A stretch of DNA of 64,000 bases from Bacteroidota bacterium (lineage in GTDB: Bacteria; Bacteroidota; Bacteroidia; J057). Below the pieces are notes generated by a model that made no database searches, was not told the origin of the DNA, and saw only the letters and a list, made by a program, of their open reading frames with translations. The DNA is taken from positions 23,469 to 87,468 of the forward strand of contig JBCCQN010000005.1 of assembly GCA_039024315.1 (NCBI GenBank), written 5' to 3'. A program made the position numbers and the translations under genes. Positions 32,913 through 50,633 of this stretch are shown one piece after another; position 1 is the stretch's first letter; each line of letters begins with the position of its first letter.

Positions 32913-33875
32913 TTAGATCTGTTTTTTGAGGACTAATTGGCGATAATAATGACCAAGAGGAGTTAGCTTACAACTTTTGCTATTCATAGCTGCATCGTAC
33001 ATATGCTCCTCGCCCACTGGTACCACAAAACCTACTTTGGCAAACTTTTGTAATAATCGGAATTGTCTCTCTTTTTCTGTGTCTCCGAGTTTTGCTTCTG
33101 GTTCATAAGCGGGCTCTAGAGGAAAGTTATCTAGTTTACCTTGAAACAGTGGCTTCAATTCGCGAATAACTTCAGCTTCCAGAGCTGGTTTACATTTACG
33201 GATTACTGACTCACGCTCCAAATAGGCAGCGAACTGTGGCCTTTGATCTGCTAAAGAAAGTAACTGCTCTAAATGCCGGTACAAACTTCCTAAAGTTACT
33301 TTTCCGACTACATCTCCTGCTTGTCCTTTCAGACCATCGATTAAATGCTTGGTAAAGATGCTACCACCTGCACTCATTTCAGCACTTTGCTCAGAGCTTG
33401 CAGCTGCCAAAATAGCCATTCCTTTCCGAAGACTGGTTCTGTCCTCCCCCTGAGAGGAAATTTGAAACATTTCCCCACTGAAGCAACAGTCTAGGATGAT
33501 AATCACCTCATCATGATGGCTATTCATCGCTAAACTTTGCAGCTCAAAAAAAGAGATACCAGGATCATCTAGTGTGGCTTCAGAGGTACATAAAAATCCG
33601 ACTCCGCCTTTGACACTACCATGACCTGAAAAATATAACAGACATTCGTCATAGTTTTTATCGTTAAAAAACTTAATCAGTTTGTTGCGTAATTGGCTTC
33701 TTCTGACCGTTTCTCGGTCATTTAACAATGTATCACAATGATAATTGTACTTCCCATCATGATCTTTACTTAAGATTTCTTCTAGGCGCTCTGTCTCTTT
33801 AATCACGCCGGACAAATTGGGAAACTTTTTACTCTTATAATTTTCAATGCCGATCAAGAGGGCTTTGCGATCCAT
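32913..33875 (-). CDS. Caspase-fold (Peptidase C14-like) protease with a C-terminal domain of about 95 aa and unknown function
   Basis: 320 aa beginning MDRKALLIGIENY. The catalytic His context is LLYFSGHGS and the catalytic Cys context is IIILDCCFSG. A 1-nt gap separates it from the upstream ATPase gene. Confidence 0.8.
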   Translation of the reverse strand: MDRKALLIGIENYKSKKFPNLSGVIKETERLEEILSKDHDGKYNYHCDTLLNDRETVRRSQLRNKLIKFFNDKNYDECLLYFSGHGSVKGGVGFLCTSEATLDDPGISFFELQSLAMNSHHDEVIIILDCCFSGEMFQISSQGEDRTSLRKGMAILAAASSEQSAEMSAGGSIFTKHLIDGLKGQAGDVVGKVTLGSLYRHLEQLLSLADQRPQFAAYLERESVIRKCKPALEAEVIRELKPLFQGKLDNFPLEPAYEPEAKLGDTEKERQFRLLQKFAKVGFVVPVGEEHMYDAAMNSKSCKLTPLGHYYRQLVLKKQI

Positions 33876-33876
33876 A

Positions 33877-35361
33877 TTATTCAGGCTTGGTTTGGATTTG
33901 TAAACACATGTGTCGGAGATAAGAAATTTGCGCTTCCTCGGCTCCTAACTGATGTAATTGAGAGATTGCCATATGTAAAAGGCTAACACAATATAACTTT
34001 AATGCGATATTTTCCTTCACTTCGGGGTCATTTTGATCCGGTTCTTCGATGATGACCTCCGTATCCGTGGCCAGAACGTGAATAAAATCGCGTTCGAGAT
34101 CCTCATTACTGATTACGGCAGCTTCGTATTCATCGGGCAATTCAGCCGTGGTATTGACTAGGACAAGACGAGATTTGGCATTTTTTGCGCTTATTTTTGT
34201 TACGATATCCTTCCAAGTCATCAAAGCACTTAGGCCACAAAAACGATAATGCTGGGCGAGAAAATGCTGCCAATGCAAACGACTGATCGCGTATGCTAGG
34301 ATTTGATTTCGGTATTGCCCTAAAATACGCTGTAAAATATGAGGCTGATCGTTCGCGAGTAGCGTAAAAAATGAAAATACCTGCTTGTTTAGGTAGGCCG
34401 GTAGCTCATGGACGATAGGATCATCAGGCAGGAGTTGGTTACGGGTGGCAGTAAGCTTGAGATGAGGACTGTTGACCAATACCTTGATAAAAGAAAAATT
34501 AGCTGGCAAAAAATTATCCTCTGTTTCGCAAACCCAAACGCCTTTTTTAAAAACCTGAGCTCCGTTGGTTTCTGCGACTTCCGATATCGGGCCTACACTC
34601 AAAAAAATCTGACTACCATCAAGTGCAGTATGCACATAGTTCGCCAAAGACTGGTGTTGGGGATAGTAGTTTGTTAGAAGTGCTTGGGCTTCATTTTTGT
34701 TCCAGAGGATAGCTTGTGCGGTATCTTTTTTTACGGCTTGCCGAACGCTTCTCTCGACAAACTCACAGCTTGGATTTATAGCCTCCGCTCCCTTTCCGAT
34801 CAAGATTGGTTTGCGTAATAAGGCAAAAGTACGCCTAATATAAGCCTCCAAGGCTTCTCTTTTGGCTAGGTGCAAAAACTGAGGCTTAAGCACCAATTTG
34901 ACACTAGTCCCTTGGGGTGCATCCTCTTGCTCAAATAATTGCATTTGATTTTTGCCCTCTAGCCAAAGCAGTCGATTCGCATGCGTACTCTCTGCTTGCC
35001 GACTAACAATTTCAATTCTTTGCGCCAAGGCAAAACCGCTCAGACGTCCAATCCCAAATTCCCCTAAGCAAGACTCATCTTGTCTTGCCACTTTATTGCC
35101 AAATATTGAAAAGTTTTTGACTAACTCCTCTCGACCCATGCCCCTCCCTTGGTCTGAAATGATGATAGCACCTTCTTCAATATCGACCCTAATGGGCTTA
35201 AATTCATCATTTTGATAAGCATCAAAGGCATTTGATATATAGGCTCTCAGAGCAATCAAAGGCTCTGGTAAATAGCTTTCACGCCATAATTGGAGCACAT
35301 GGGCAAATTTGCTTTGTAGATTTACCGTTTGTCCAAACTCTGTGCTGAGTTGGTTAGTCAT
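33877..35361 (-). CDS. Divergent Hsp90/HtpG-like GHKL ATPase
   Basis: 494 aa. The Bergerat-fold motifs appear in Hsp90 order: LRAYISNAFDAY (N-box, compare LRELISNASDA), IIISDQGRGMG (G1, DxGxG) and LGEFGIGRLSGFALAQRIEIVS (G2, compare IGQFGVGFYSAFLVA). Confidence 0.7.
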   Translation of the reverse strand: MTNQLSTEFGQTVNLQSKFAHVLQLWRESYLPEPLIALRAYISNAFDAYQNDEFKPIRVDIEEGAIIISDQGRGMGREELVKNFSIFGNKVARQDESCLGEFGIGRLSGFALAQRIEIVSRQAESTHANRLLWLEGKNQMQLFEQEDAPQGTSVKLVLKPQFLHLAKREALEAYIRRTFALLRKPILIGKGAEAINPSCEFVERSVRQAVKKDTAQAILWNKNEAQALLTNYYPQHQSLANYVHTALDGSQIFLSVGPISEVAETNGAQVFKKGVWVCETEDNFLPANFSFIKVLVNSPHLKLTATRNQLLPDDPIVHELPAYLNKQVFSFFTLLANDQPHILQRILGQYRNQILAYAISRLHWQHFLAQHYRFCGLSALMTWKDIVTKISAKNAKSRLVLVNTTAELPDEYEAAVISNEDLERDFIHVLATDTEVIIEEPDQNDPEVKENIALKLYCVSLLHMAISQLHQLGAEEAQISYLRHMCLQIQTKPE

Positions 35362-35563
35362 AGATTCCTAAATAGATTGATTTAACGTTCTCCCCATAGG
35401 GGGGACGCAGCCTCAGCTGCGCCCCAGTCGAGAGAGAGTAAAAATGAAAATTAAATTGTTTAGGTGTGCATTCTGGCCTGAGTACGATAATCGCATAATG
35501 CTTTGGTTTGATCAATACCAGAAAAGTGGTAGTTATTTATTTTGTGTTCTCGGTTTTGGTTTA

Positions 35564-35669
35564 CTGCTGCGCAGAACGATTGTCTTGAGGGTGCGGCATG
35601 CATGCTCGCACCTACCTTTTGTAGCGGCGTATTGCATGCGCCGCAAGGGATGATCGTTCTGCAAAGCAG
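35564..35669. repeat. MITE/REP-like inverted-repeat element (repeat family 1 variant)
   Basis: The termini ctgctgcgcagaacgat (35564-35580) and atcgttctgcaaagcag (35653-35669) are inverted repeats with 2 mismatches. The interior holds two GC-rich hairpins (gtgcg-gcatgcatgc-tcgcac and gcggcg-tattgcat-gcgccgc). Confidence 0.6.
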
Positions 35670-35729
35670 CAAAAACAAAAAAAGGCTGACAGAGAAACTC
35701 TATTAGCCCTTGCAGAAATACTTTTTTGC

Positions 35730-36392
35730 CTAGTCAGTGCCTAAGGAGGGATCAATTAGGCCTATCTGGACGGCTTTCATCAATAGCTCTTGACTATTCC
35801 GAGCCCCTAGTTTTTTGCGTATGTTACGAAGATGGGTATGCACCGTATTGGGAGCGATTTGTAGATTTACACCGATCTCGTCACTGGTTATGCCTTTGGC
35901 CAAAACGCGAATAATCTCTAGTTCTCTTTTGGAGATTTTGGGCTTCGGTTTTTGTTCTTCTCGGATAATTTCTGGCAGCATTTTCATTACATCTTGCCCA
36001 TAGTATTCTCTACCAGTAGCAACCTCCCTTACCGCGAGAACAAGTTCGTTAGCAGAGTCATCTTTAAAAATATAGCTGCGTACACCTAAGCGTAAAGCTC
36101 GCTTAACATAAACCTTAGCTTTGTGGTTAGTTAGTATCACAATGCCAATATCCTGACTAGGATATTTTTCATAGATAGCCGCGGTTGCCTCTAAACCCGT
36201 TTGTCCTGGCATCTCAAGGTCCATGATCACCACGTCGACCTCGTGTTTGTGCTGATCGACTAAGTCAACGACTTCTAGGCCGTTGGTAGCATGAGCAATT
36301 ACATTTACTCCCTCTTCATACTTTAAGAGTGCCGCCACTCCTTCGCGAAACATTTGTGTATCCTCAGCAAGGATTACATTAACTATTTTCAT
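35730..36392 (-). CDS. NarL/LuxR-family response regulator (REC + GerE HTH)
   Basis: The phospho-acceptor context is VVIMDLEMPG and the HTH is SKRELEIIRVLAKGITSDEIGVNLQIAPNTVHTHLRNIRKKLG. I chose the start at 36392 (MKIVNVILAED) by alignment with the paralogue; the track ORF extends to 36410. Confidence 0.9.
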   Translation of the reverse strand: MKIVNVILAEDTQMFREGVAALLKYEEGVNVIAHATNGLEVVDLVDQHKHEVDVVIMDLEMPGQTGLEATAAIYEKYPSQDIGIVILTNHKAKVYVKRALRLGVRSYIFKDDSANELVLAVREVATGREYYGQDVMKMLPEIIREEQKPKPKISKRELEIIRVLAKGITSDEIGVNLQIAPNTVHTHLRNIRKKLGARNSQELLMKAVQIGLIDPSLGTD

Positions 36393-36393
36393 G

Positions 36394-38622
36394 CTAAACT
36401 GGAATTTCAATATTGACCGTGGTACCTCGCCCTAGCTGAGAGTCATACTCACAACTCCCTCCTAAGCTATTGGTGATCGTGTGGATGATTTTCACTCCTT
36501 TCCCTTCAAATTCCTTATCAGCCGTATCGAAGCCTACACCGTCATCAATCACCATCAAGTTTAGGAGATCATCTACCTCTGTTATGTTGATTTCGATATT
36601 TTTGGCGCCGGAGTGTTTGACCGCATTATTGAGCAATTCGGATATTAATGAGTAAAGTTTGACGCGAGTATCCAAACCCAATTTTTCAGCATTAAAATCA
36701 AACACGGGCTCTACTGCTATATTACTGTATTGAGAAGTCTTTTGACACAGTTCTTGGACAGCATCGGCAAAGTAGCGCTTAGCCAAGACAGTCTGCCCAT
36801 TCTCGTGAGAAATCGCTCGAACTTTTTCTTGAATTTGAGAGAGGTTCTCTTCTAAGTTTTGCCAAACTTCTTGATTCAAAGCTCCAAATCCTTGTTTAAA
36901 TGGATGCTTTGCTAAAGTAAAGAGAGCCCCCACGTCATTGTGTAAAGCCAAAGAGATACGCCCTCTTTCTTCTTTTTGTCCTTTGAGCATCGCCAAGATA
37001 GAGTCCGCTTTATTGCTTTCGATCAGATTCTCGATTTGGAGCTTTTGATATTGGACTTCGGCTTTCTGTTTTTCCGCTTCCGCTTTTTGTCTTTCCGCTT
37101 CCGCTTTTTGCTTAGCTATTTCTACCTTTTGGGCTTCAACCTCAGATTCCTTATATGCGGCTAAAATACGCTGTTTTTCAGCCTCGGATTTTTGCTTAGT
37201 CTCTTTAGTTTTTTGAAGATAAAAGATCACACCTACAATCAAAGTAAAAAGGACAAAAACCAATATGAAGTTTCGGACTAGTATTTTTCTCTTCGCCGCC
37301 GCGGCCTGCTCATACAATTTGAGGTTAGTATCAAAGTGTGAGGCTTCGGCTCGTCGTAAGCTACCATTGATCATCTCGACAAGACTATCTTCGGCCTGGC
37401 TGTATTGGTAAGCTTGATCGTAGTCTCCCAATTGAGCATTGAGAAAAGCTAAGTCATCAAGAACGCGACGATGAAGGTCGTTTTGTTGGGTATTAGCGAC
37501 TTTTTCCAAACTTTCACTTAAAGAGATCTGAGCTGATTTAAACTGCTTGGTTTCCAGATACAATTCGCCCAGATTAATGTACGCCAATACCGCACTTCTA
37601 GAACTTTGCGCTCGAGATAAAGCTACCGCCTGTTTATAGTATTGCTCTGCTTTTGTAAAATCTTTTTGTTTTTCGTGAATGGTACCAAGTTGGTTCATTA
37701 ACTTGGTAAAGTCTTCATACTCAATTTGATACTGATCTATTTTCTTATTGAACGCCTTGAACGCTTCTTCCCCTATTGTTAATGCCTCATCTTTTTTTCC
37801 CATTTCCCCCCAAAGTCCAATCAAAGCTACTTCAGCTTTTATCAGAAGAGGAATATTGTTTACTTCTTTGGCGTAAGTCAATAAGTCTTGAAGCTGTGAT
37901 TCGGCCGAATCATAGGCTCCTAATTCCAAATAAATGTTTCCGAGGGAAAGACGATTATAGGCAACACCGGCCTGTTCTTCCAATTCATGCATTACAGATA
38001 AGCTATTGAGGCTATTCTCCAAGGCTTTGTCCAGTTCTCCCTTCTGAAATAAGGCATCAGATAAGTTGATCTGTATATAGGCCGCTACTTTATCATCTTC
38101 AATGTCTTGCCATATATCTAGACCTTTTTGGAAGTGAAATACTGCGGAATCCAAGTTCCCCAACTTCTTATGAATTATCCCTAAATTGTTATGACTATCC
38201 CCTACATTTCCAGTCAGGTCTAGTATTTTTCTCAGGCTCAGCGCCTTTTGCGCAAATTCTAAGGCTTCAACAAGCTCATTTTGACGTTGGGCGATGGTAC
38301 TTTTTTGACTGTAGCAGTCTGAGGCAAGATGAGGATAATCTCTTTTGAGTGCCAATTGTAAAGTCGAATCAAGCATATGTGAAGCTTTTGTATAATCCTT
38401 ACCTGCTTGGATCAGCTCAAAGGCATCATTATTAATAGCCCACAATCCTTCTAGGGAAGTCGAGTTTTGGGCTGATAAATTCGTAGAAGCCATAAAAAGA
38501 AGTACAAATACAACCGCAAATTTTCTTGTTTCTATCAATCCAAAAAACATATATAAGAGCTTATTTATGGCAAGTCTGTGATCATTCTTTTCTGTTGTTA
38601 TCAAACCCTTCATAGGGGACAC
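36394..38622 (-). CDS. TPR-repeat sensor histidine kinase (HisKA_3 + HATPase_c), copy 1
   Basis: 742 aa. The order is an N-terminal signal/TM, about 380 aa of TPR-like repeats, a TM (FILVFVLFTLIVGVIFYL), a KAEAE coiled coil, the H-box ALHNDVGALF, the N-box ELLNNAVKHSGA and the G-box DDGVGFD. Confidence 0.85.
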   Translation of the reverse strand: MSPMKGLITTEKNDHRLAINKLLYMFFGLIETRKFAVVFVLLFMASTNLSAQNSTSLEGLWAINNDAFELIQAGKDYTKASHMLDSTLQLALKRDYPHLASDCYSQKSTIAQRQNELVEALEFAQKALSLRKILDLTGNVGDSHNNLGIIHKKLGNLDSAVFHFQKGLDIWQDIEDDKVAAYIQINLSDALFQKGELDKALENSLNSLSVMHELEEQAGVAYNRLSLGNIYLELGAYDSAESQLQDLLTYAKEVNNIPLLIKAEVALIGLWGEMGKKDEALTIGEEAFKAFNKKIDQYQIEYEDFTKLMNQLGTIHEKQKDFTKAEQYYKQAVALSRAQSSRSAVLAYINLGELYLETKQFKSAQISLSESLEKVANTQQNDLHRRVLDDLAFLNAQLGDYDQAYQYSQAEDSLVEMINGSLRRAEASHFDTNLKLYEQAAAAKRKILVRNFILVFVLFTLIVGVIFYLQKTKETKQKSEAEKQRILAAYKESEVEAQKVEIAKQKAEAERQKAEAEKQKAEVQYQKLQIENLIESNKADSILAMLKGQKEERGRISLALHNDVGALFTLAKHPFKQGFGALNQEVWQNLEENLSQIQEKVRAISHENGQTVLAKRYFADAVQELCQKTSQYSNIAVEPVFDFNAEKLGLDTRVKLYSLISELLNNAVKHSGAKNIEINITEVDDLLNLMVIDDGVGFDTADKEFEGKGVKIIHTITNSLGGSCEYDSQLGRGTTVNIEIPV

Positions 38623-38738: not shown

Positions 38739-39419
38739 TTAGAATTTGTTTAAGTTTTCTTGAATCTTAATAAGGTACTCATATACTTTTAGACCGATCT
38801 CTAAGTTTTCGAATCGAATGGTTTTGTGATTAAAACTCCCTAACTCTTTGGTAAAAGCAGGATCTTTTAAACAATTTTCAGCATTCAAACACTTAAAATG
38901 GATTATTTCTACTGCTGGACCAACATTCGTATTGCCTGATTTGTGGGGTAAATGCTCAATACTTATTAACACATCCTTCAAATTTCCAAGTATTCGTCCT
39001 TTGGACGCAGAACCCATATCAAATGAAAAGTTTCCATGACTGTCGAACTTGACAACTGTTCTGCCATTCTTGTTTAATAAATCCTCTAACTCCTTGACAG
39101 GATTTTGATAATCTTCTTTTTGCCGTTTGGAAGTTTTTGGTTCCTCATATAAGAGGCCAATAATGTCAAGGTTTGAAATGAACTCACTGATGCTAACCAC
39201 TAATTTATTCCGCTCAATATTTCCATCACTTTCACTGACTAAATCTAATCTCATTTTCCGCATTAACTCTTTATGTCTTAATCGAAAGTTGACAAGTTCA
39301 GTTTTCTGATTGTCTGGAAGAGTTAACGAACTAATACTCTGAAGGCACTGAAAAATATCTTCAGAACATATTTCCAAAAGTTTATTCTTAGTCATCGTTT
39401 TGTCAGTTATGAGCTTCAA
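38739..39419 (-). CDS. Hypothetical protein (AT-rich orphan-like gene)
   Basis: 226-aa ORF, visibly more AT-rich than the surrounding genes. It has a helical N-terminal about 95 aa and a beta-rich C-terminal half. I recognise no motif. Confidence 0.5.
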   Translation of the reverse strand: MKLITDKTMTKNKLLEICSEDIFQCLQSISSLTLPDNQKTELVNFRLRHKELMRKMRLDLVSESDGNIERNKLVVSISEFISNLDIIGLLYEEPKTSKRQKEDYQNPVKELEDLLNKNGRTVVKFDSHGNFSFDMGSASKGRILGNLKDVLISIEHLPHKSGNTNVGPAVEIIHFKCLNAENCLKDPAFTKELGSFNHKTIRFENLEIGLKVYEYLIKIQENLNKF

Positions 39420-39491
39420 TCAAGATCATACCGCTAAGTATTTCACCGTCCCTTCGACTATAACAATATATACCCATACTACTAAAAAGCG

Positions 39492-39533
39492 ATGATTAAT
39501 ACTATTTTTTTAATAAAAAATAGTATTAATCAT
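39492..39533. repeat. 42-bp near-perfect palindrome
   Basis: atgattaatactatttttt (39492-39510), taat, then aaaaaatagtattaatcat (39515-39533). The arms are 19 bp and perfectly complementary. Confidence 0.7.
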
Positions 39534-39881
39534 TGCACAAATGACTAAAAAATAATTAAGCAGATAAGAAAATTATAGTACTATTACTGTAAACTCTCCG
39601 GTCGCAACAAAAAAACAGAGCTTCCTAGCATAGGAAAGTACGCAGAGAAATTCTGTTTTTGGCAGTGCGAATAAGGTATTTGTGTCTATGATGGTACAGG
39701 CCCTACCACTACAATCAAAAGTAGCGTTTCACATGTGCTTGTTTCTTTTGTAACTCTCGTTTCAATTTAAATTGTTAATGAGAACGATTTAGCTTTCTGC
39801 ATTTATCTCTCCTTAGGCAACAATTATTTCAAAGGCCTAGAGTCAAAGTAGAGCTCAATGCATGATGCCGAAATACTGAGC

Positions 39882-40556
39882 TTAAAAGGTTTGGTGCTTT
39901 TCACTTTCAGATTCTAGTTCAGGGGATATCAGGCCTTCTTTTATTGCCCAAACAACCAATTCAACCGTATTCCCCAGATTCAACTTCTGCAACATATTCC
40001 TGCGATGGGTGTGGACCGTATTTGCAGAGATGAAGAGTTTATTTGCGACTTCCTCTGTAGTTAACCCCTGTTTTAAAAGCTCAACAATTTGAATTTGACG
40101 CTTTGATAATTTTGGCTTGGGGGGTTCATTAGCTTCTCTAATAATTTCTCTTTGTAATTTCACCAACTCTGCACCATAATATTCCTCCCCAGAAGCAACA
40201 GTCCTAATTGCAAGCATAAGTTCATCATAATAATCTGCTTTAAGGATGTATCCTGGAATCCCAATAGTTAGGGCACGACGTAAGAATGCTTTACCTTTAT
40301 GGGTAGTCAGGATCACAATACCTACTCCTTGATATTTTTCTTTTATCTCGATGCTAGCTTCCAGCCCCCCTTTTTTCGGCATTTCAAGGTCCATGACAAC
40401 CAGATTAACCTCATGTTTATGCTTTTCGACGAGTGTAAGAACTTCTTCCCCATCTTCAGCCTGGGCGATTACCCTGACTCCTACCTCATCTTTGAGTAAA
40501 GCCCTAATACCGGCTCTAACAATGTGCATGTCTTCTGCTAAGATAATATTGATCAT
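39882..40556 (-). CDS. NarL/LuxR-family response regulator (paralogue of 35730-36392)
   Basis: It has the REC context LVVMDLEMPK and the HTH SKRQIQIVELLKQGLTTEEVANKLFISANTVHTHRRNMLQKL. The start overlaps the kinase stop by 4 nt. Confidence 0.9.
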   Translation of the reverse strand: MINIILAEDMHIVRAGIRALLKDEVGVRVIAQAEDGEEVLTLVEKHKHEVNLVVMDLEMPKKGGLEASIEIKEKYQGVGIVILTTHKGKAFLRRALTIGIPGYILKADYYDELMLAIRTVASGEEYYGAELVKLQREIIREANEPPKPKLSKRQIQIVELLKQGLTTEEVANKLFISANTVHTHRRNMLQKLNLGNTVELVVWAIKEGLISPELESESEKHQTF

Positions 40557-42592
40557 TTTGCTGATGCTATAGGTATTTTGATTTTCACTGTTGTTCCGTG
40601 ATTTATCTGAGAATCATACTCACAATCTCCATTCAAATTCTTCACCCTACTGAAAATATTCCTCATACCGTCTCCTGTAGGATTTCGGATAAGCGAGGAC
40701 GAAATTCCTTGCCCATCATCTTCGACCATAATTTCGCAATCCAAGGCTGTGATAGTAAGGTAGATTGTAACCAGATCAGCATTTGCATGCTTAAGCGAAT
40801 TATTCAAAAGTTCTATTATTATCGGATAAACTTGCATTTCGAAGTTAGAATCGAGTTCTGCTGAATCATCAATTGTGATGTATTGCTCGATCTCAGGGGG
40901 ACTACTTTGGTTTAGTTTATCTACTAATTCTTCAATAGCAGCCTTTAGACCTAACCGAGTTAAAACACTTGATTTTAGATTCTGTGAAATATTATAAATC
41001 TCGTTACTTACCTTTCTTAAGGTATCCTTGAGGGGGTGATTAGGTACATTCTCTCCTATCTGCTTTGATGCTAAGGTCAACAATGCCCCCACTTCATCGT
41101 GGAGCCTTTTTGCAACTCTTAATCTTTCCGCTTCTTGCCCTTCGGATTTTGCCAGTACGAATTTATTCTCATTTTCCTGAATTAGTTTTGCGATTTCCGC
41201 TTTCTTCTCATCAACAATCCTTTGTTGTTGTAACCTTTTCCTTCTTTGCTGGAAATACAGAATAAGCCCAATAAGAGAAATCAGCAATACCAGAATTATG
41301 GCATTTCTCAGGATAGCATTTCTCTTCGCCGCCGCGGCCTGCTCATACAATTTGAGGTTAGTATCAAAGTGTGAGGCTTCGGCTCGTCGTAAGCTACCAT
41401 CTATCATCTCGACAAGACTATCTTCGGCTTGGCTGTATTGGTAAGCTTGATCGTAGTCTCCCAATTGAGCATTGAGAAAAGCTAAGTCATCAAGAATGCG
41501 ACGATGAAGGTCGTTTTGTTGGGTATTAGCGACCAATTCTAATCCCTTTTTGAGATGTACCTTCGCTGAATCATATTTCTCCATTTCTAGGAAAAGCTCT
41601 CCTAAATCAATATTAGCAAAGGCTTCGTTTCGCAGGTTTATGCCTTTTGAAAATGCCATAGCTTGTTTAAAGTATACTTTGGATTTTTCATAATCCTTTT
41701 TGCTCTTCCAAAGTATACCTAGTAAGTAGGAAACCTTACCAAGGTCCTCATTTTCAATTTGATATACCTCAATATATTCGTCGATATTTTGGAAGACTTC
41801 TTCTCCAATGGTTAAAGCTTCTTTTTGCCTACCCGAGTTGAGAAAAAGTCCCGAAAGACAACTTTTCACTTTTACCTCTAATGGTATATTCTTAGTTTCT
41901 TTAGCAAATTTTAGGAGTGCTTGAAATTGAGATTCCGCCGAGTCAAATGCGCCTAGTTCAAGATAGATATTTCCTAGAGTAAGTCTAGTATAGGCAATCC
42001 CCTGTTTTTTTTTGAGCCTAATTCTAGACTCTAAGCTATAGATTGCTAATTCTAGCGCTTTATCTAATTCTCCTTTGTGATATAGGGCATCTGCCAAATT
42101 ATTTTGAAATAAGGCAACTACTGATTCATCTCCAATCATTTGCCAAATCTCTAAACCCTTTTGAAAATGAAATACAGCAGAATCTAAATCCCCTAGCTTC
42201 TTGTGAATAATGCCCAATCCATTATGGCTATCGCCGATCTTGCCTTTACTGGCTAGGCCTTTTCTGATCGATAGTGCATGCCAAGCATAGTTTAATGCAG
42301 GCTCCAAATCATCTAGTCGTTGTGCCAAGGTACTTTTTTGACTGTAACAATCAGACTCTAGGCTATCAAATTCAAATTTGACCGCTAGTTCTAAGGTAGA
42401 GTCGAGCAAATGAGTAGCTCTGGTAAAATCTCGTCCTGATCTGATCAAAGCATAAGCTGTATCGTTTAGAACCCATAATTCTTGCTCTAACTCAAACAAT
42501 GTATTTATTGGTTCGGCTTTAAGGCCGCTAAAGCAGAACAATAAGCACATAAATGCCCCAGTAAGCTGAAAATTCAGACTACTCCTTAACAT
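40553..42592 (-). CDS. TPR-repeat sensor histidine kinase (HisKA_3 + HATPase_c), copy 2
   Basis: 679 aa with the same architecture as copy 1. The H-box is RLHDEVGALL, the N-box ELLNNSLKHANA and the G-box DDGQGIS. Confidence 0.85.
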   Translation of the reverse strand: MLRSSLNFQLTGAFMCLLFCFSGLKAEPINTLFELEQELWVLNDTAYALIRSGRDFTRATHLLDSTLELAVKFEFDSLESDCYSQKSTLAQRLDDLEPALNYAWHALSIRKGLASKGKIGDSHNGLGIIHKKLGDLDSAVFHFQKGLEIWQMIGDESVVALFQNNLADALYHKGELDKALELAIYSLESRIRLKKKQGIAYTRLTLGNIYLELGAFDSAESQFQALLKFAKETKNIPLEVKVKSCLSGLFLNSGRQKEALTIGEEVFQNIDEYIEVYQIENEDLGKVSYLLGILWKSKKDYEKSKVYFKQAMAFSKGINLRNEAFANIDLGELFLEMEKYDSAKVHLKKGLELVANTQQNDLHRRILDDLAFLNAQLGDYDQAYQYSQAEDSLVEMIDGSLRRAEASHFDTNLKLYEQAAAAKRNAILRNAIILVLLISLIGLILYFQQRRKRLQQQRIVDEKKAEIAKLIQENENKFVLAKSEGQEAERLRVAKRLHDEVGALLTLASKQIGENVPNHPLKDTLRKVSNEIYNISQNLKSSVLTRLGLKAAIEELVDKLNQSSPPEIEQYITIDDSAELDSNFEMQVYPIIIELLNNSLKHANADLVTIYLTITALDCEIMVEDDGQGISSSLIRNPTGDGMRNIFSRVKNLNGDCEYDSQINHGTTVKIKIPIASAK

Positions 42593-42606
42593 TGTGTTGT
42601 TGTTTA

Positions 42607-43020
42607 TTAGTCCAAATCTATTGGACGACGAATTTCATTTGGTGAAGGCTGATTTACAGGATAGGAATTTTTCTTTTTACCATCCACCATTACAACAATT
42701 TCCATTTTTCGATCTGGAAATTCATCAAGCTTAAGTTCTTCCAAGTTTACTACATGAACCAAAGGAGTGGTAAAAGGGAAGTAAAGAACCTCCAAATCTT
42801 GGCTCAGGTATAACTCTACTTCGTAGACATCATCATTCTCTTCTGAAGTACTATTAACCTTTTCTTTTGGAGTAGTATTAACCTTCGAACCTGATGCAAC
42901 GTATCGGCAGTCGGAAACCTCTGTAACCGTGTGTAAGGCGTAGCCAACAAGTCGATCATTGCCTTCGTCATCTTTTTCAATGATTTTGGCGTAAGTGTAA
43001 TATAGATCGGTGATATCCAT
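42607..43020 (-). CDS. Hypothetical 137-aa protein (two beta-rich halves joined by an acidic/Ser-Thr linker)
   Basis: The ORF sits 17 nt after the metacaspase stop and 14 nt before the kinase start, on the same strand. The linker is KVNTTPKEKVNSTSEENDD. Confidence 0.55.
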   Translation of the reverse strand: MDITDLYYTYAKIIEKDDEGNDRLVGYALHTVTEVSDCRYVASGSKVNTTPKEKVNSTSEENDDVYEVELYLSQDLEVLYFPFTTPLVHVVNLEELKLDEFPDRKMEIVVMVDGKKKNSYPVNQPSPNEIRRPIDLD

Positions 43021-43037
43021 AATGAGTAGGGAGTATG

Positions 43038-43775
43038 TTAGATGGTAAAGGGAATTTGCTCTTTAAAGATTATACCGTGAGGCCCAGAGTAACTCAACAT
43101 TACCGATTGCTGAGCGCCATATTTTCTTCGTATTTTTTTCTTAATCGCTCGTTTAAAAGCCAAATAGTTTCCTTCAAACTCTCCCTCATCCCATACTTCT
43201 AGTAAGCATTCGGTAAAACGTCCGTTTTCCTCTCCCTCATATGCTTCTTGATTATCCGCTGTACCAGAAAGCAATATCACACTGGCCAGCGGTTCGTCCT
43301 GCTCCTCCGTAGGCACCTCTTCGACCGTATCTGCTAGACCATATTTATGGATAGAGCCACCATGACAACAATCTGACACCACCAGTATGCGAACTCCTGC
43401 TGGAAACTCACAAAATAGTTCGTTCAGTTTATCATCTACAAACAATCCATCAAATAAGCAAAGGTTTTCATCTTTACCGTCCCCCTCTTCCTCATCTCCA
43501 TTTTGGTCTTTGGTCTGATAACCATGCCCAGCGTATGTGAGTAAGAAGATATCCCCAGCTTTTACTTTGTCTTTGATAGATCGCACCCCACTAATAAAAG
43601 CGCTAATGGTAGCCTCCTCATTTTGCAAACAAGTAGTTTTAAACTTTTGTTTAGCAGCCAGATCGCGCATAGAGATCATATCCTTAACCGCAACATCTAA
43701 AGGCCACTCGCTGCCATTGTAGTCGTCAGAATTGACAAAATCCAATCCCACATGCAATGAATATCCGTTTGCCAT
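43038..43775 (-). CDS. Metacaspase/orthocaspase-like (Peptidase C14) protease
   Basis: The His context is FLLTYAGHGY. It is followed by the metacaspase-type acidic insert DQNGDEEEGDGKDENLCLFDG and the Cys context ILVVSDCCHGG. I chose the ATG at 43775 (MANGYSLHVGLDF); the track ORF starts at the TTG at 43811. Confidence 0.8.
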   Translation of the reverse strand: MANGYSLHVGLDFVNSDDYNGSEWPLDVAVKDMISMRDLAAKQKFKTTCLQNEEATISAFISGVRSIKDKVKAGDIFLLTYAGHGYQTKDQNGDEEEGDGKDENLCLFDGLFVDDKLNELFCEFPAGVRILVVSDCCHGGSIHKYGLADTVEEVPTEEQDEPLASVILLSGTADNQEAYEGEENGRFTECLLEVWDEGEFEGNYLAFKRAIKKKIRRKYGAQQSVMLSYSGPHGIIFKEQIPFTI

Positions 43776-43911
43776 AGCTTTAGTTTTAAACGCAACTTTC
43801 CTGTTTCTCAATTATCAAAACATTTGAGAAGACACGCTTTTCGAAAAATCAGTTATTGCAGATAATGTAACTTATGGAAAGATAATTAGCGATGTCTTAT
43901 ATACCAAATGT

Positions 43912-43936
43912 TAGGGAGCAATTTGATTGCTCCCTA
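43912..43936 (-). terminator. Strong hairpin between the 1244-aa gene and the metacaspase operon (probable terminator/insulator)
   Basis: tagggagcaat-ttg-attgctcccta forms a perfect 11-bp stem. The T-rich tail is better on the plus side (ttatttta), so the orientation is uncertain. Confidence 0.5.
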
Positions 43937-43965
43937 TTATTTTATCTATACCATTTTTCTGGTAT

Positions 43966-46900
43966 TTATTCCTTGACTAGTACCAATTTGGTACGATCGT
44001 GCTTAAATCGCTGGAAGTAATACTCTCTAAAGGCCTGATAATCCTCCGGTTTGACGATCGCTTGAGTGAACTGATTTTTGCGAATTACCCGGAGTCCGCT
44101 CTCTTCGAGCCTAAATTCAAGACTGTACTCCCCAAATTGAGACCTTAGGCGCACGTCTTCCGGAATTTGATATAGCTTCATGCCTTCAGGCATCCTGATC
44201 AGAAGGTCTTGCTCTGTGGGGGCCAGAACAGTGATTTGCGACACATCCAATAATCCCAATCGTTCTTCTTGCAGCAAAGCATCTGGCAGGCTACCCTCAA
44301 CAATAAGGGGTAAAGTCAAAATGGTCAGATCATACAAATCTTCAGTAAATTCTGGTGCTTGCAGTCCCGTCTGTAAGTAAAGGGGATCATGGATTTTATC
44401 GAGGTTTTCCAATTCAAATTCAGCATACTTTTGCCTCGATATAGCCGGAATGTTGAGCTCACGACGAAATAACTCATTGCTTTCTTGCTGGTCTGTATCC
44501 GTCAATATTTCGCGAAAGCGTGCGCCTTCTACTCCCGTATAGATCCCGTTGATATCCAGCGCGATGCTACCATCGGCCTTTAGATCGGCCCCCAAGTGAT
44601 AGCTGATTTTGGTCCGCTCTGGATCAATCCGAGTATCTGGCAAACGGAAAATACGATCTTCGCCTTCTTTAATCAACAAAGCCCAAGCATCCGCATCCAT
44701 TTCTGGTAGCGCACGATAGGGAAAACGATCGGTAGTCAAATCGACATATTCCATCTTCCCGTCGATCACATAAGCAACCACCACATGATTAAATATCAAC
44801 TGCGGCAAGCACTCAAAAGGGATGTATTGCCCCGCCAAAGTCAAAGCATAATAAGACTCAATATCTGCCATCCGCAGCAAAGCAATCATGAGCGTGGCTA
44901 CATCCTTACAATCTCCGATACCAGAGGTACAGGTGAGTTCAGTCGCTTGAGGCTCAAAATTAGACTGCAAAAAAGAAACCGAAGAGTAATTGATCTCCTT
45001 AGTGATATAGGTGTAAAAAGCAATTACCTTCTCTTCATCGCTCATGCCCGGCTCAACCAACTCATCATATAGCTTTTGCAAATAGGGATTAGGATCGAGT
45101 TTTCGGTAGGTGAGATCATTATACCACTCTACATACTTGCTCCAATCTGTCTCATTGGAAAACCACAGAGAAGGCGATGAATACCAGTCTGCAAAGCCCG
45201 CTTCTTCTTCCTTCAACTTAGGTACATCTTTAAGCTCCCAACGATAAAAATCATAACCCGCTTCCGTCCTGATAGCCGGTTCCTGATCGATTCGATACGG
45301 TACATAGGGTAGGTTTTCCCCTTGGGGAACGCCAATCTCCAGATAAGTAAAGTGGATAGGGTAGGATAGCATAAAGGGCTGCCAAAGCATCCAATGATCT
45401 CCAAAGGGAAACTCCTGCCAGCTAAAGCCATCTGTAGCAGTACCCTCGGCGTAGATTCGATCTCCAGGCCGCAGATCCTTAAAAACTGCAAAATTACCAT
45501 TTTGCTCTGGTCTAAATTCTGTGCCATCAGGCCGAACTACCTTAATGGATACATTATCGCCGAGATAAGAAAAATTTGATTGAGTCCATGCCCTCACCCC
45601 ATTGACAGTATTGATCTGCACCAGCATCTTTTGAGTGCTCTCGACATTGCCGGAAGTATCGACCAAAAACTGCATCGTTCTTAAAGGGATCACCACATTT
45701 TCCTGCTGATAGCGCGCTTGCCATTCAGATTCTTGGGCGAGAATATCTTCAAAGCTTACTTCCTTAAATGCATTGCGCGCCTCAATCGGCGAACGCAGCG
45801 ACTTAATCTTTGCACTAAGCTCATCCCTATAATAAAAGACGTTTTTTTTGTGAGCATCGGCCAATTCAAAATAGTGTAAGGCACTATCCAGCTGCCCCAT
45901 ATCTTGGTAGATCTCGCCTTTCAACTCTAGTAAAGCACTTGAATACGGATGGCAAAGTAGCCCCTCTGAAATAGTAGCGAGCGCCTCCGTCTGTTCATCT
46001 TCTGCCCTATGATAGTTGGCTTTTCCGGTAAAGGAACTCACGTAAAAGGGAAAGCGGGCTAAGGTCTCTTCATGGCCCTTAAGGGGATTTTCTTTTCGCT
46101 TTTTGCGTTCGCGCTTGAGTTTTTGAGCCTTACGCCATCTTTTGAGAGAAAACTTCTCTTTCTCTCCCTTACCCTTTGAGCTATAAGACTCCCTAAACAT
46201 ATTTTCATAATCAGGGTAGCGTTCGACAATGTCGTCTTTGTAAATATCTAGGGTATCGCTCCAATTTTTGAGCCGATAGAAATCAATGGATTTACGGACC
46301 GTCGCGCGATTTGAGCTCGCAATCTCTTGCAACAAACTCAACCAGTTGTAATAAAGCTCACTCTGCATTTCTGCGTTGAGTCGGGTCATCTCACGATTGA
46401 CCAAAGGATAGAGGGGAGTAGCCTTTAAATCGACCCGTTCTAAACTGCGGGAAGCTTGGACGAAATTGCCGACCTTGCCATGAAACATGGCCAAAAAGCT
46501 CCGTAGATATACTGACTCGGAGTAGCGTTCCACCGCAGGGGTAAAAAACGAAATACCTTCTTGATATAGCTCCTTTTTCAAAAACAAACGAGCTAATAAA
46601 TAATAGTCGCTCCATTGAAAATCCTCAGACTTGATCTTGCTCTTTAGGTAAAGGAGATTTTGATCTTCCAAGGACTCAAAGTCCTTTAACGCTCCTTGCT
46701 TTGCTTCGGCTTTTAAAGGAGATAGTCTCACCAATTTACCTTGAGCATCAACGAGACGGACAATAACCCCCTCACTCTGGGTCTGACGGCCATATCGCTC
46801 CGCAGTATCGAAGAAAGAAAATTCTTCATATTGTCTAATATTTGGATTATACGGACTTAATTTTATTCGCAAATCGTGATTTCCAGCACTCAGCAAAATG

Positions 46901-47840: not shown

Positions 47841-50633
47841 ATGTTTCCAAATTTTGGTATATATTTTGAACGACTTTTCAATTTAACCCATAGCACCTTC
47901 GTTCTCACCCCTAATCAATGTAGCTTGAAATACGGCAGCTTAACTTTTCTCTTGCTTTTTGGCTTGAGTGCTTTCTCTCTCTCTGCGCAAATTAACCTGA
48001 CATCATTTTCCAGCCTTCCCAACACCATCAACGAGACCTCCGGTCTGGCCGCCAATGGTAGTAATAAAGTCTGGACCCACAACGACTCTGGAGGAGAAAA
48101 CAAACTCTATGAGATCGACACTATGGGTAATATTACCCGGACTTTGACCATCCTTAATGCTACTCTAGTAGATTGGGAAGAGATGGCTCAAGACGATCAG
48201 GGCAACTTTTATATTGGAGATTTTGGTAATAATGGCAACGCCCGTAACAACCAAAAAATCTATATCATCCCCAATCCTGATTCGATTTCCTCAGATAGCG
48301 TTTTCGCTCAAGTAATCAACCTTTCTTATGCCGATCAAACTGCCTTTCCCCCTCCCAACAATCGGAGACATTATGATATGGAAGGCATGATTTGGTATCA
48401 GGATAGTCTATACCTTTTTTCCAAAAACCGCACAAATCCATTTGACGGTTATACCCGTCTCTATAAGATGCCTGATAATCCAGGTACTTATTCGGTGAGT
48501 CCAGTAGATAGTTTTTATACGGGCCCAGGCCCCAAAGAGACTTTCTGGATTACAGGAGCAGATATTAGTCCTTCAGGAAAACAGCTTATGCTCCTTTCTT
48601 ATGATAAAGTTTGGCTCTTTTCCTGTTTCAGTGGCAGTGATTTTTTTAATGGAGACGTGCAGCAGCTGAGCTTAAGTGCGCTCGGCCAATACGAAGGTAT
48701 CAAATTTATCGATGAAGCTACGGTCTATATAAGTAATGAGACTTCAGTTACAGGTACCGCAGCCTTAAATAAGGCAGACATTAGCAATTTTATAAGCGTA
48801 CCATTTGTCGATTTAGGTCCAGACATTACCACCGCTAATTTGACAGCCACCCTCCTCGGAGGCAATCAACCCAGCGGTTCCACCTACTTATGGAGCAATG
48901 GTTCGACCAACGCACAAATCAATGTCAATATGAGTGGCCTTTATTGGTTAGAGGTCACCAATGGCAGCTGCGTCGAAAGGGACTCCATCAGTGTCACGCT
49001 CCTTTGCCAAGGCTTTGGCAGTGCTGCGAGTGGAACCAATATTGACTGTTTTGGCAATCAAAATGGGATGATTGATTTGACCGTAATCGGAGGTACCCCT
49101 GGCTATAACTACAGTTGGTCCAATGGGGCAAACTCTCAGGACTTGAACAATCTCTCCGCAGGCACCTACAATGTCACGATCACTGACCAAAATGGCTGTG
49201 TACGTCAACAGTCTATTACCATAGTTGAGCCTCCCATTTTGAATGCAAGTATCCAAGGCACAGATGTAAGCTGTAATGGCGGTAGTAATGGAATAGTCGA
49301 TCTCAGCGTCTCTGGCGGCACCCCTGGCTATACCTACAGTTGGTCCAATGGAGATACGAGTCAAGACCTTCTCAACGTAGCAGCAGGCAATTATAATGTC
49401 AGCGTTTTCGACGCCAACAATTGTAATATTCCTCTCAGTCAGACTTTGACTGAGCCAAGTCCGATATTGGTCAATTTATCTCCTAGTGCCACGCTATGTT
49501 TTGGCGAAGCTAGCGGTAGTATCAACTTAAGCGTTAGCGGAGGCATAGCCGGATATCGTTTTGCGTGGAACAATGGAGATACCACCCAAAATGTCAGTAA
49601 TCTCAGTGCGGGGGTTTATGCAGTAGTCGTAACTGACGCCAATAACTGCCCGATCCAAGCCGTCGATACCGTCGATAATGCACCCCCAATTGGCATCGCC
49701 TTGAGCAATACAGATGCTAGCTGTGCCAATATCGACGATGGTAGTATAGATTTGACGGTAGCAGGCGGCACTCCTCCCTATCAATATAGCTGGTCCAATG
49801 GCGCGACAAGCGAAGATTTGCTAGGATTAGGAGCGGGCCTTTATACCTTTGTTCTTACTGACTCCAATGCCTGTAGCCGCACCGATAGCATTGCCGTTAG
49901 TGCCCCTCCGGCACCAATTTTCAGTCTCGACGGGCAAGATGTACTATGCGCAGGTGATAGCAATGGATCGGTAAATCTCAGTCTTAGCGGTGGAGTAGCT
50001 CCCTTCTCTTACTTATGGAGCAATGGAGATAGTTCCTCCGATCTGAGTGCTGTCCCTGCAGGAACCTATCGTCTTTCTCTCACAGATAACCTAGGCTGCG
50101 TGTTTGAAGACAGTTTGGCGATTAGTGAACCAAGTGTATTATTGATAAGCAATCTTAGTAGTACGCCAGACAGTACGGGTAGCAGCGGCACCATCAGTTT
50201 GAGTGCGACAGGAGGCACCCCTCCTTACAGCTATGCTTGGTCAAATGCGGCTACCGATAGTAGCCTTAGTGGTCTTGCCGCGGGTGATTATGCCATCACG
50301 ATTACAGATGCCAATGGCTGTACTGTGAATGACAGTGTTACGGTCATGCTTCAATCCTCTATCTCGATTGAAGCCCCACTTGGTCTGCAACAATTTGGCA
50401 TATATCCCAATCCCGCAAGCGACGAAGTCAAATTGCAGATTGAATGGCAAATAGCACAAGCAGCACGCTTGAGACTCTATAATCTGCAAGGCCAATTGAT
50501 GTGGGAAGGCAGCCTCGAGGCGTCCAAAACACAAGAAAAGATCATTCAGATGGGCCACCTGACTCAGGGGATTTACCTGCTAGAACTCAGTTCTGAGTCT
50601 GGGATTTGGTCTAAAAAGATCCAAAAGTTGTAA
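47841..50633 (+). CDS. T9SS-secreted adhesin-like protein: N-terminal beta-propeller-like domain, six SprB-type repeats and a T9SS C-terminal sorting domain
   Basis: 930 aa. A repeat of about 75 aa, C.G...G.I.L.V.GG.P.Y.Y.WSNG....DL..L.AG.Y.V...D.NGC, occurs six times (about 48990-50350). The tail reads IYPNPASDEVKLQIEW..LYNLQGQLM..LTQGIYLLEL. A TTG at 47925 (LKYGSLTFLLLFGL..) is an alternative start. Confidence 0.8.
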   Translation: MFPNFGIYFERLFNLTHSTFVLTPNQCSLKYGSLTFLLLFGLSAFSLSAQINLTSFSSLPNTINETSGLAANGSNKVWTHNDSGGENKLYEIDTMGNITRTLTILNATLVDWEEMAQDDQGNFYIGDFGNNGNARNNQKIYIIPNPDSISSDSVFAQVINLSYADQTAFPPPNNRRHYDMEGMIWYQDSLYLFSKNRTNPFDGYTRLYKMPDNPGTYSVSPVDSFYTGPGPKETFWITGADISPSGKQLMLLSYDKVWLFSCFSGSDFFNGDVQQLSLSALGQYEGIKFIDEATVYISNETSVTGTAALNKADISNFISVPFVDLGPDITTANLTATLLGGNQPSGSTYLWSNGSTNAQINVNMSGLYWLEVTNGSCVERDSISVTLLCQGFGSAASGTNIDCFGNQNGMIDLTVIGGTPGYNYSWSNGANSQDLNNLSAGTYNVTITDQNGCVRQQSITIVEPPILNASIQGTDVSCNGGSNGIVDLSVSGGTPGYTYSWSNGDTSQDLLNVAAGNYNVSVFDANNCNIPLSQTLTEPSPILVNLSPSATLCFGEASGSINLSVSGGIAGYRFAWNNGDTTQNVSNLSAGVYAVVVTDANNCPIQAVDTVDNAPPIGIALSNTDASCANIDDGSIDLTVAGGTPPYQYSWSNGATSEDLLGLGAGLYTFVLTDSNACSRTDSIAVSAPPAPIFSLDGQDVLCAGDSNGSVNLSLSGGVAPFSYLWSNGDSSSDLSAVPAGTYRLSLTDNLGCVFEDSLAISEPSVLLISNLSSTPDSTGSSGTISLSATGGTPPYSYAWSNAATDSSLSGLAAGDYAITITDANGCTVNDSVTVMLQSSISIEAPLGLQQFGIYPNPASDEVKLQIEWQIAQAARLRLYNLQGQLMWEGSLEASKTQEKIIQMGHLTQGIYLLELSSESGIWSKKIQKL

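Follow-up and report, generated by a model that had tools for sequence, protein, structure and literature searches.

Homologs of caspases are abundant in bacteria, what switches them on is mostly obscure, and in the characterised cases a sensor is fused to, or partnered with, the protease. Two kinds of described system are among the closest to the locus analyzed here. In a survey of predicted metacaspase operons, signalling, sensor or regulatory domains were present in 23 of 217 (Asplund-Samuelsson et al., 2012; PMC3501461), and the supplement to that survey lists an operon of Sorangium cellulosum that combines a sensor kinase with a response regulator of the sigma-54 type, as well as Myxococcus operons with sigma factors. 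The second kind comprises protease-effector defence modules, whose effectors include Pepco, EACC1, MBL and alpha/beta-hydrolase proteins (Evans et al., 2025, preprint, PMC12642450; Kaur et al., 2020, PMC7159879); Pepco is a 117-amino-acid (aa) beta-barrel protein that is activated by loss of its charged, proline-rich C-terminal tail (Evans et al., 2025). The locus compared with these systems lies on a 119,552-bp contig of a Bacteroidota metagenome-assembled genome, which carries NCBI proteins MEM6342791-800 and from which a stretch of 64,000 nucleotides, hereafter the window, was examined; the locus is likewise present in SRR22824307. On the minus strand of the window, the gene for a C14 metacaspase-like protease (caspase1) is followed by genes for a 137-aa orphan protein, a sensor kinase with TPR repeats (HK1) and a NarL/LuxR-type response regulator (RR1).

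As in the operons tabulated by Asplund-Samuelsson et al. (2012), signalling genes here share a predicted operon with a caspase homolog. Those operons are only tabulated, however, none of them has a TPR kinase, a small partner open reading frame (ORF) or a shared operator candidate, and the Sorangium regulator is of the sigma-54 type rather than the NarL/LuxR type found here. The first-pass annotation of this DNA knew of no described case of a caspase-fold protease inside a classical two-component operon, which is too strong a statement given the 23 predicted metacaspase operons with signalling domains, the Sorangium kinase and regulator among them. Our literature search found no study of a caspase within a TPR-kinase/NarL-type operon, and none in which a two-component system and caspase genes are connected by a shared operator. 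The novelty lies in the combination of parts and in the candidate regulon; the components themselves belong to known families, with the exception of the small protein.

The locus also proves larger than the four genes first described: a further kinase/regulator pair belongs to it, and so does another caspase operon. A paralogous TPR sensor kinase (HK2, 36394..38622) and a paralogous NarL/LuxR regulator (RR2, 35730..36410) form a pair (38622..35730) 4 kb downstream of the first, and are 47% and 52% identical to HK1 and RR1, respectively. RR2 is directly followed by the gene for an HSP90/HtpG-like GHKL ATPase (33877..35361) and then by a second caspase gene (caspase2, 32913..33875), all on the minus strand. 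Upstream of caspase1 is a gene for a 1244-aa protein with DUF3857, transglutaminase and DUF3858 domains (hereafter, TGase), so that the layout reads TGase; palindromic site, terminator and promoter; caspase1, small gene, HK1 and RR1; ORF226 (a low-GC hypothetical gene); HK2 and RR2; palindromic site and promoter; HSP90-like ATPase and caspase2. At a confidence close to even, though below it, we propose that the two-component system transcriptionally controls two caspase modules, its own operon included. The locus is a compact candidate for the transcriptional control of bacterial caspases, on the basis of adjacency and one conserved motif across a handful of metagenomic contigs.

That motif is an operator-like palindrome present once at each caspase operon. 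The sequence AATACCAGAAAARTGGTA (AATACCA-N6-TGGTAT) has exactly two copies in the 64 kb, where 0.11 would be expected even with up to 3 mismatches; one copy (site 1, AATACCAGAAAAATGGTA, 43949..43966; TACCA-N6-TGGTA with 7-2-7 geometry) is located just past the TGase stop and upstream of the caspase1 operon, and the other (site 2, AATACCAGAAAAGTGGTA on the plus strand, 35514..35531) about 160 nt upstream of the HSP90-like gene. The shorter form TACC-N8-GGTA matches three times in the window (0.38 expected for the whole window), and all three matches fall within this locus, the third (TACCTTTCTTAAGGTA, 41009..41024) inside the HK1 coding sequence. The relatives available for comparison were L001 (GCA_964534295.1), L002, L003 and L004 (GCA_038526955.1 and others), L014, and two ERR4592245 contigs (P0002 and P0004). 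Both palindromes are kept at the same positions in L001, where site 2 corresponds to 12016-12031, and site 1 has invariant arms in L001, L002, L003 and L014. The 6-nt spacer, by comparison, is variable or flipped (GAAAAA, CTTTTC, GAATAG), and the neighbouring terminator hairpin is wholly changed. Conserved arms around a free spacer, in a free context, are the pattern expected of a site for a dimeric DNA-binding protein, not of a mere RNA stem. Between the window (43949-43966) and L001 (7811-7830), the spacer of site 1 is reverse-complemented (GAAAAA against CTTTTC) while arms and flanks retain the same orientation, which looks like a small hairpin-loop inversion.

Each palindrome stands at a similar distance from a promoter-like element. 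The consensus for the -7 element of Bacteroidota sigma-A promoters is TAnnTTTG at -12 to -5 (PMC9723704), and from the match to it we infer a sigma-A promoter upstream of caspase1 (43877..43908, minus strand), with a -33 TTTG (43908..43905), a 20-nt spacer and the -7 box TATCTTTC (43884..43877), whose columns are conserved in an alignment of four loci. A second such -7-like box, TAATTTTC (35453..35446), follows site 2, and the L001 equivalents of the two boxes are TATATTCA and TAAGTTTC. Measured from the -7 TA, the centre of the palindrome is 67-74 nt upstream in each of the four promoters (two in the window, two in L001), about 80-86 nt upstream of the predicted start. In geometry and in their outer quartets, sites 1 and 2 resemble the NarL 7-2-7 site TACCCCTAAAGGGGTA, a 16-bp inverted repeat with TACC...GGTA ends (PMC4549865). 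Written as heptamers, the candidate sites are TACCAGA-AA-AATGGTA and TACCACT-TT-TCTGGTA, against TACCCCT-AA-AGGGGTA for NarL. With the NarL heptamer consensus, TACYYMT, the candidate sites have only TACC in common; the inner bases differ, as expected for a different regulator. A regulon link through the shared palindrome is, in our estimate, a little less probable than even. The first-pass annotation had looked to the region 43812-43911 for a LuxR-type operator; autoregulation is plausible, but the best candidate operator, at 43949-43966, lies outside that region. One block within it, TTTTCGAAAA (~43838-43850), was discarded, being conserved only between the window and L001 and not in L002 or L014. 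We also set aside the idea that the palindromes are att sites or inverted repeats bounding an 8.4-kb mobile island: no recombinase is encoded nearby, each site is itself palindromic, and the sites are direct in L001 and spacer-flipped in the window with gene orientation identical.

Under the proposed mechanism, the TPR domain of the kinase or kinases, probably periplasmic, would sense an envelope or extracellular cue, and the kinase would phosphorylate its NarL/LuxR-type regulator. A dimer of the regulator would then bind the conserved 16-20-bp palindrome AATACCA-N6-TGGTAT upstream of both caspase operons. Binding would induce the regulator's own operon from the promoter near 43880, a positive autoregulation that would take along caspase1 and its small partner, and would also induce the operon of the HSP90-like ATPase and caspase2. 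Caspase1 and the 137-aa protein would act as a dedicated cytoplasmic pair, the latter as substrate/effector or as inhibitor. What the sequence shows directly is the gene content and spacing, the hairpins on either side, the conserved order and palindromes, and the purifying selection acting on the small ORF. From these we infer each element of the mechanism, namely co-transcription, the interaction between regulator and palindrome, the direction of regulation, and the relation of protease to partner. A classical kinase/regulator pair lying between two caspase operons that share a conserved operator-like palindrome would make a transcriptional, envelope-signal-driven deployment of caspases directly testable, and the locus supplies a defined DNA probe, both regulators and both proteases, and the 137-aa protein as a candidate substrate. 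If synteny is all that links them, a metacaspase here adjoins a two-component locus that is routine for Bacteroidota.

As its first step, the mechanism has the four genes transcribed together. Caspase1 (43038..43775 from an ATG, or from 43811 with a TTG start), the 137-aa ORF (42607..43020), HK1 (679 aa, 40553..42592) and RR1 (224 aa, 39882..40556) are separated by gaps of 17 nt and 14 nt and then by a 4-nt ATGA overlap between the HK1 stop and the RR1 start. Downstream of RR1, the spacer at 39420-39881 has a GC content of 0.34 as compared to 0.445 for the window, and its AT-rich sequence contains two terminator-like hairpins (39493..39660, minus strand; folding z = -5.8), one with an A-run/U-run stem (39660..39611) and the other with 19 bp followed by UUUUU (39534..39493). 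Upstream there is an 11-bp GC-containing hairpin (43912..43936, minus strand; z = -5.3). The gaps, hairpin, AT-rich spacer and ORFs recorded in the first-pass annotation were thus all recovered, but the upstream hairpin, there taken as bounding the block, lies 30 nt past the TGase stop, and strong hairpins of unrelated sequence occupy the same position in L001, L002 and L014, so that it is probably the TGase terminator. Within the block, sigma-70-like and terminator-like matches were no more frequent than in shuffled sequences (the sigma-70 model is uninformative for Bacteroidota), and no Rfam family reached its gathering score anywhere in the window. The tight and conserved junctions, the hairpins on both flanks, the conserved promoter-like element upstream and a gene order kept in three lineages make it likely that the four genes form one transcript, and the single-transcript reading first put forward for them is consistent with every sequence-level test that we ran.

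Comparison with the relatives shows how far the arrangement is conserved. Caspase1 belongs to a rare clade, with six clusters at >=50% identity (50-68%), and wherever the contigs are long enough, these clusters show the order TGase, caspase, small ORF, TPR kinase and, where reached, LuxR regulator. In L001 all four genes are present, with junctions of 18, 15 and -14 nt; in L002, L003, L004 and L014 the order is seen as far as the kinase, and the two ERR4592245 contigs have the same order as far as they extend. The junctions of L001, L002 and L014 are similar to those of the window, and the one between the small gene and the kinase measures 14-15 nt in all lineages. The arrangement is conserved in three related lineages, but only inside one rare clade, where synteny extends to the flanking genes. 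Between the window and L001, the nonsynonymous divergence (dN) values of caspase1, the small ORF, HK2 and RR2 are 0.24, 0.33, 0.20 and 0.23, respectively, as compared to 0.08 for the flanking TGase, so these four genes share an elevated evolutionary rate. In L002 (5709-6871), a frameshift or assembly error divides the kinase gene that follows the small ORF into a 116-aa ORF and a second ORF; the L014 locus, which is 85% identical to L002, has an intact kinase.

The main rival to transcriptional control by the two-component system is plain synteny. It holds that caspase1 and the small protein are a self-contained module adjoining, and perhaps read through into, an ordinary TPR-kinase/LuxR pair that regulates other targets, the palindromes being terminator-associated hairpins or sites of an unrelated factor. 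Several observations weigh on its side or against control by the two-component system. The TGase gene upstream and the HSP90-like ATPase gene downstream are syntenic in the same relatives, and the order may be a matter of simple inheritance. The kinase adjoining caspase1 and the small gene is a different paralog in the window and in L001, so the junction tolerates kinase replacement. Caspase homologs at about 40% identity occur in unrelated contexts that have no two-component system, namely in Aureispira, in two cyanobacterial element-like regions (with SNase, patatin and methylase genes) and in a Peptidase_C1-linked locus. Only the outer 4 bp of each heptamer fit the NarL consensus, and the palindrome, as RNA, also forms a short hairpin beside the terminators and could bind a different factor. 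Moreover, scans of genome and metagenome collections gave no further examples, leaving a sample of about six caspase clusters: HK1 had a single irrelevant match (24% identity) among genome contigs, and two metagenome scans, one using the HSP90-like protein and the other the aligned sequences of HK1, HK2 and the L001 kinase, returned nothing. The clade is absent from the collections scanned, or too divergent in them, and whether orthologous kinase pairs elsewhere lack the protease, which the first-pass annotation had named as refuting the operon, is answerable only inside the clade.

Four observations count against plain synteny. The 14-15-nt junction between small gene and kinase, kept in all lineages, is too short for an intergenic promoter; the palindrome arms are conserved and the true terminator hairpin alongside is not; the same motif stands at both caspase operons at an equal distance from the -7 box; and the regulators are flanked by two unrelated caspase genes. 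On balance we regard descent as neighbours as the less likely explanation, though one to be taken seriously. Conservation of the order TGase, caspase, small gene and TPR kinase was borne out in three lineages, but the identity of the kinase is not fixed, so the four genes do not amount to a fixed co-inherited unit.

Caspase1 itself is by sequence an ordinary metacaspase-like enzyme. NCBI annotates it from the ATG at 43775 as a 245-aa 'caspase family protein', it matches Pfam PF00656 (Peptidase_C14) with 75.2 bits (cut-off 21.4; E = 8e-21), and it aligns over its full length to Geobacter GSU0716 (PDB 3BIJ; E = 2e-38), its catalytic core also aligning to Yca1, to MCA2 of T. brucei (TbMCA2) and to AtMC4. 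The His-Cys dyad is in YAGHG and DCCHGG, matching YSGHG and DSCHSG of GSU0716 and Yca1. The acidic insert DEEEGDGKDENLCLFDG, to which the first-pass annotation drew attention, does occur, between the histidine of GHG and the cysteine of DCCHGG; it is not distinctive, because its GDEEEGDGKDE aligns with GDEEDGMDD of Yca1 and SNDEPDGVDE of GSU0716 and is an ordinary metacaspase segment. Caspase1 thus has in common with proteases of the GSU0716/Yca1/MCA2 type the Pfam C14 domain, the dyad and a GDExxGxDE acidic segment after the catalytic His, but differs in being short and stand-alone, with no fused sensor or interaction domain. It also gives weak matches to the PADLOC model 'caspase' and to 'caspase_w_EACC1'. 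A Kyte-Doolittle scan (19 residues; no signal-peptide predictor was applied) found no hydrophobic segment in caspase1, and none in the 137-aa protein.

The small protein is the only component of the block outside known families, and it represents an orphan family strictly tied to one caspase clade. It had four relatives among 5.8 billion protein clusters, and an exhaustive HMMER search yielded two real matches among 1.84 billion representatives; a third match, P0126, was spurious, a repetitive acidic protein aligned on a low-complexity insert. Every relative directly follows a caspase of the caspase1 clade, and a hidden Markov model of the protein found no remote copy beside the distant caspases of Aureispira, cyanobacteria and L008. 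The dN/dS ratio between L002 and L014 is 0.080 for the 137-aa ORF, the same as for the caspase (0.088), by which the ORF is a real gene under purifying selection. An AlphaFold2 model built with five sequences (pLDDT 84, pTM 0.76) predicts an all-beta protein of seven strands, with a disordered insert at residues 53-60; the tail at its C terminus is rich in proline and charge, and Q124, P125, R132 and P133 are invariant. The model has no fold match in PDB or BFVD (TM <= 0.34, E >= 0.06), and resemblances to NigD-like proteins and to DUF1344 were rejected as weak on the same fold searches. No Pfam family matches the sequence even at E <= 10, and none was found in NCBIfam, PADLOC or PHROG. We presume that the protein is a dedicated partner of caspase1, either a substrate/effector or equally an inhibitor.

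This pair recalls the protease-effector modules, which likewise set a caspase-like protease by a small non-enzymatic beta-rich protein with a charged, proline-rich tail and which, as in this locus, can have a chaperone-linked caspase nearby. The resemblance of the caspase1 pair to the Pepco and EACC1 modules is one of logic only, as the small protein has no homology to their effectors, caspase1 carries no fused STAND, Avs or other sensor, the small gene lies downstream of the protease, and the context is a transcriptional two-component system with a transglutaminase-like gene. One could nevertheless read the locus as a suicide or defence module with a two-component sensor, in which the 137-aa protein would correspond to Pepco or EACC1 as a latent toxin, its proline/charge-rich tail would be cut by caspase1 at the invariant Arg132, and induction by the two-component system would license activation. 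A precedent is provided by small non-enzymatic proteins that are encoded beside caspase-like or serine proteases and become active when cleaved (Evans et al., 2025), to which can be added the predicted all-beta fold and the tail with its invariant Arg, the weak matches of caspase1 to the 'caspase' and 'caspase_w_EACC1' models, and the parallel between EACC1-protease modules fused to DnaK-like chaperones and the pair formed by the HSP90-like ATPase and caspase2. Metacaspases cut after Arg or Lys. Arg132 precedes Pro, however, a poor P1' residue; the small protein has neither sequence nor fold similarity to Pepco, EACC1 or other such effectors, nor does its model have the N-terminal amphipathic helix described for Pepco; no defence-island neighbours surround the locus; and known modules use sensors that are fused to or interact with the protease, not transcriptional two-component systems. 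We consider this account improbable. A broader version, to which we attach an equally low probability, would give the two-component system the sensing role in caspase-type cell-fate modules: on an envelope signal detected by a periplasmic TPR kinase, two unrelated caspases would be licensed at the level of transcription, one paired with the small beta protein as a cleavage-activated effector and the other, caspase2, with the HSP90-like ATPase. If true, this regulon of bacterial caspases, gated by transcription, would be unlike the sensor-fused protease-effector defence modules described so far.

The signalling genes on which transcriptional control would depend have a familiar architecture. 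HK1 begins with a signal-like segment, followed by about 390 aa of TPR repeats, a single strong membrane helix (424-450), the sequence QQRRKR, an H-box (RLHDEVGA) and a HATPase_c domain (37.4 bits, cut-off 26.4). Since the TPR sensor is N-terminal of the single strong helix, it is probably periplasmic, an arrangement resembling that of Porphyromonas FimS-type kinases. The first-pass label of HisKA_3 kinase is tentative: the class is assigned from the H-box and from alignments of residues 417-677 to the NCBIfam models of MctS, UhpB, LiaS, NarQ and NarX (E = 1e-11 to 5e-21, below equivalog cut-offs), and Pfam HisKA_3 itself was not reported in HK1 at E <= 0.01. RR1 has Response_reg (73.6 bits) and GerE (68.1 bits) domains, both over cut-off, and a GerE-type helix-turn-helix is present in RR1 and RR2 alike; HK1 and RR1 are presumed to form a pair, from the adjacency and the 4-nt overlap of their genes. 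NarL/NarX-type systems are similar in their receiver-GerE regulator, in the kinase core models matched (NarX, NarQ, UhpB, LiaS) and in the overlap of kinase and regulator genes, but here the NCBIfam scores are far under the equivalog cut-offs and the Pfam HisKA_3 domain was not reported.

The predicted topology bears on a further alternative raised in the first-pass annotation, proteolytic control of signalling, in which the two-component output would be tuned after translation, by cleavage of HK1 or RR1 by caspase1 or by an action of the small protein on the kinase. Expression from one operon would give stoichiometric proximity, and CRISPR-associated proteases that regulate sigma/anti-sigma factors offer a precedent. 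The TPR sensor is predicted across the membrane from the protease, however, given that neither caspase1 nor the small protein has a hydrophobic segment; between lineages one kinase partner has replaced another, and the arrangement is retained; no conserved candidate cleavage motif was identified; and no sequence feature favours this alternative specifically. As the membrane is predicted to separate the sensor from the protease, and the kinase was replaceable in evolution, proteolytic control of the kinase is unsupported and, in our judgement, very improbable.

The swap itself is evident from L001, which has a single kinase/regulator pair. The L001 kinase is 68% identical to HK2 and 46.5% to HK1, its N-terminal signal segment is HK1-like, and the region downstream of the L001 regulator is orthologous to that downstream of RR2. 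Because the L001 kinase is the ortholog of HK2 and not of HK1, the segment of HK1, RR1 and ORF226 is, by this comparison, a mosaic insertion or duplication that retained the ancestral junction between small gene and kinase. The two paralogs also share a 300-nt tract (41319-41618 in HK1, 37286-37585 in HK2) with 85% DNA identity, and in the segment that it encodes (NTQQNDLHRR...YEQAAAAKR) HK1 and HK2 are more alike than are HK2 and its L001 ortholog, which suggests gene conversion between HK1 and HK2. HK2 has, after its membrane helix, an insertion of about 35 residues of KAEAE-type repeats (QKAEAERQKAEAEKQKAEV; 37040-37200), coded by 21/28-nt tandem-like repeats and found in neither HK1 nor the L001 ortholog. 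Downstream of RR2 there is a composite hairpin (35560-35673, minus strand) of 21-nt arms around two GC-rich stem-loops, partly kept in L001 and presumably the RR2 terminator.

ORF226 (38739..39419, minus strand), a hypothetical gene for 226, 218 or 171 aa depending on the start, is absent from L001. Its only match was a sub-threshold one to EAD11 (E = 0.0024; 18 bits, cut-off 26), and an AlphaFold2 model from the single sequence was uninformative (pLDDT 41). The spacer and ORF226 segment (38739-39881) has a GC content of 0.34, and the small gene and HK1 have 0.38; the low GC, together with the absence from L001, suggests that sequence around 38739-39881 was acquired or recombined more recently.

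In the second caspase operon, caspase2 begins 1 nt after the ATPase gene. The 494-aa ATPase matches Pfam HATPase_c_3 and, below cut-off, the NCBIfam 'HSP90 family protein' model (E = 1e-26), and its N-terminus is conserved in L001. Caspase2 (320 aa) matches Pfam PF00656 (E = 1e-16) and, with 111 bits, falls below the cut-off of 140 for the EACC1-associated type ('caspase_w_EACC1'); BLASTP detected no similarity between it and caspase1, and its match to the phage family phrog_18397 (E = 6e-51) spans the whole protein. The leader before the HSP90-like gene (35395-35450, minus strand; 12095-12150 in L001) is highly conserved and consists of TTTCATTTTTACTCTCTCTCGA followed by a GC-rich hairpin, GGGGCGCAGC...GCTGCGTCCCC; Rfam has no match to it, and in L001 the stem is retained and the loop altered. 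This leader may be a regulatory element of the 5'-untranslated region. In the DNA flanking the locus, an SprB-repeat protein (47841-50633, plus strand) and a BNR-repeat protein (27672-30314, minus strand) carry C-terminal sorting domains of the type IX secretion system (T9SS), which fits a gliding member of the Bacteroidota, and the nearest named caspase homolog is in Aureispira.

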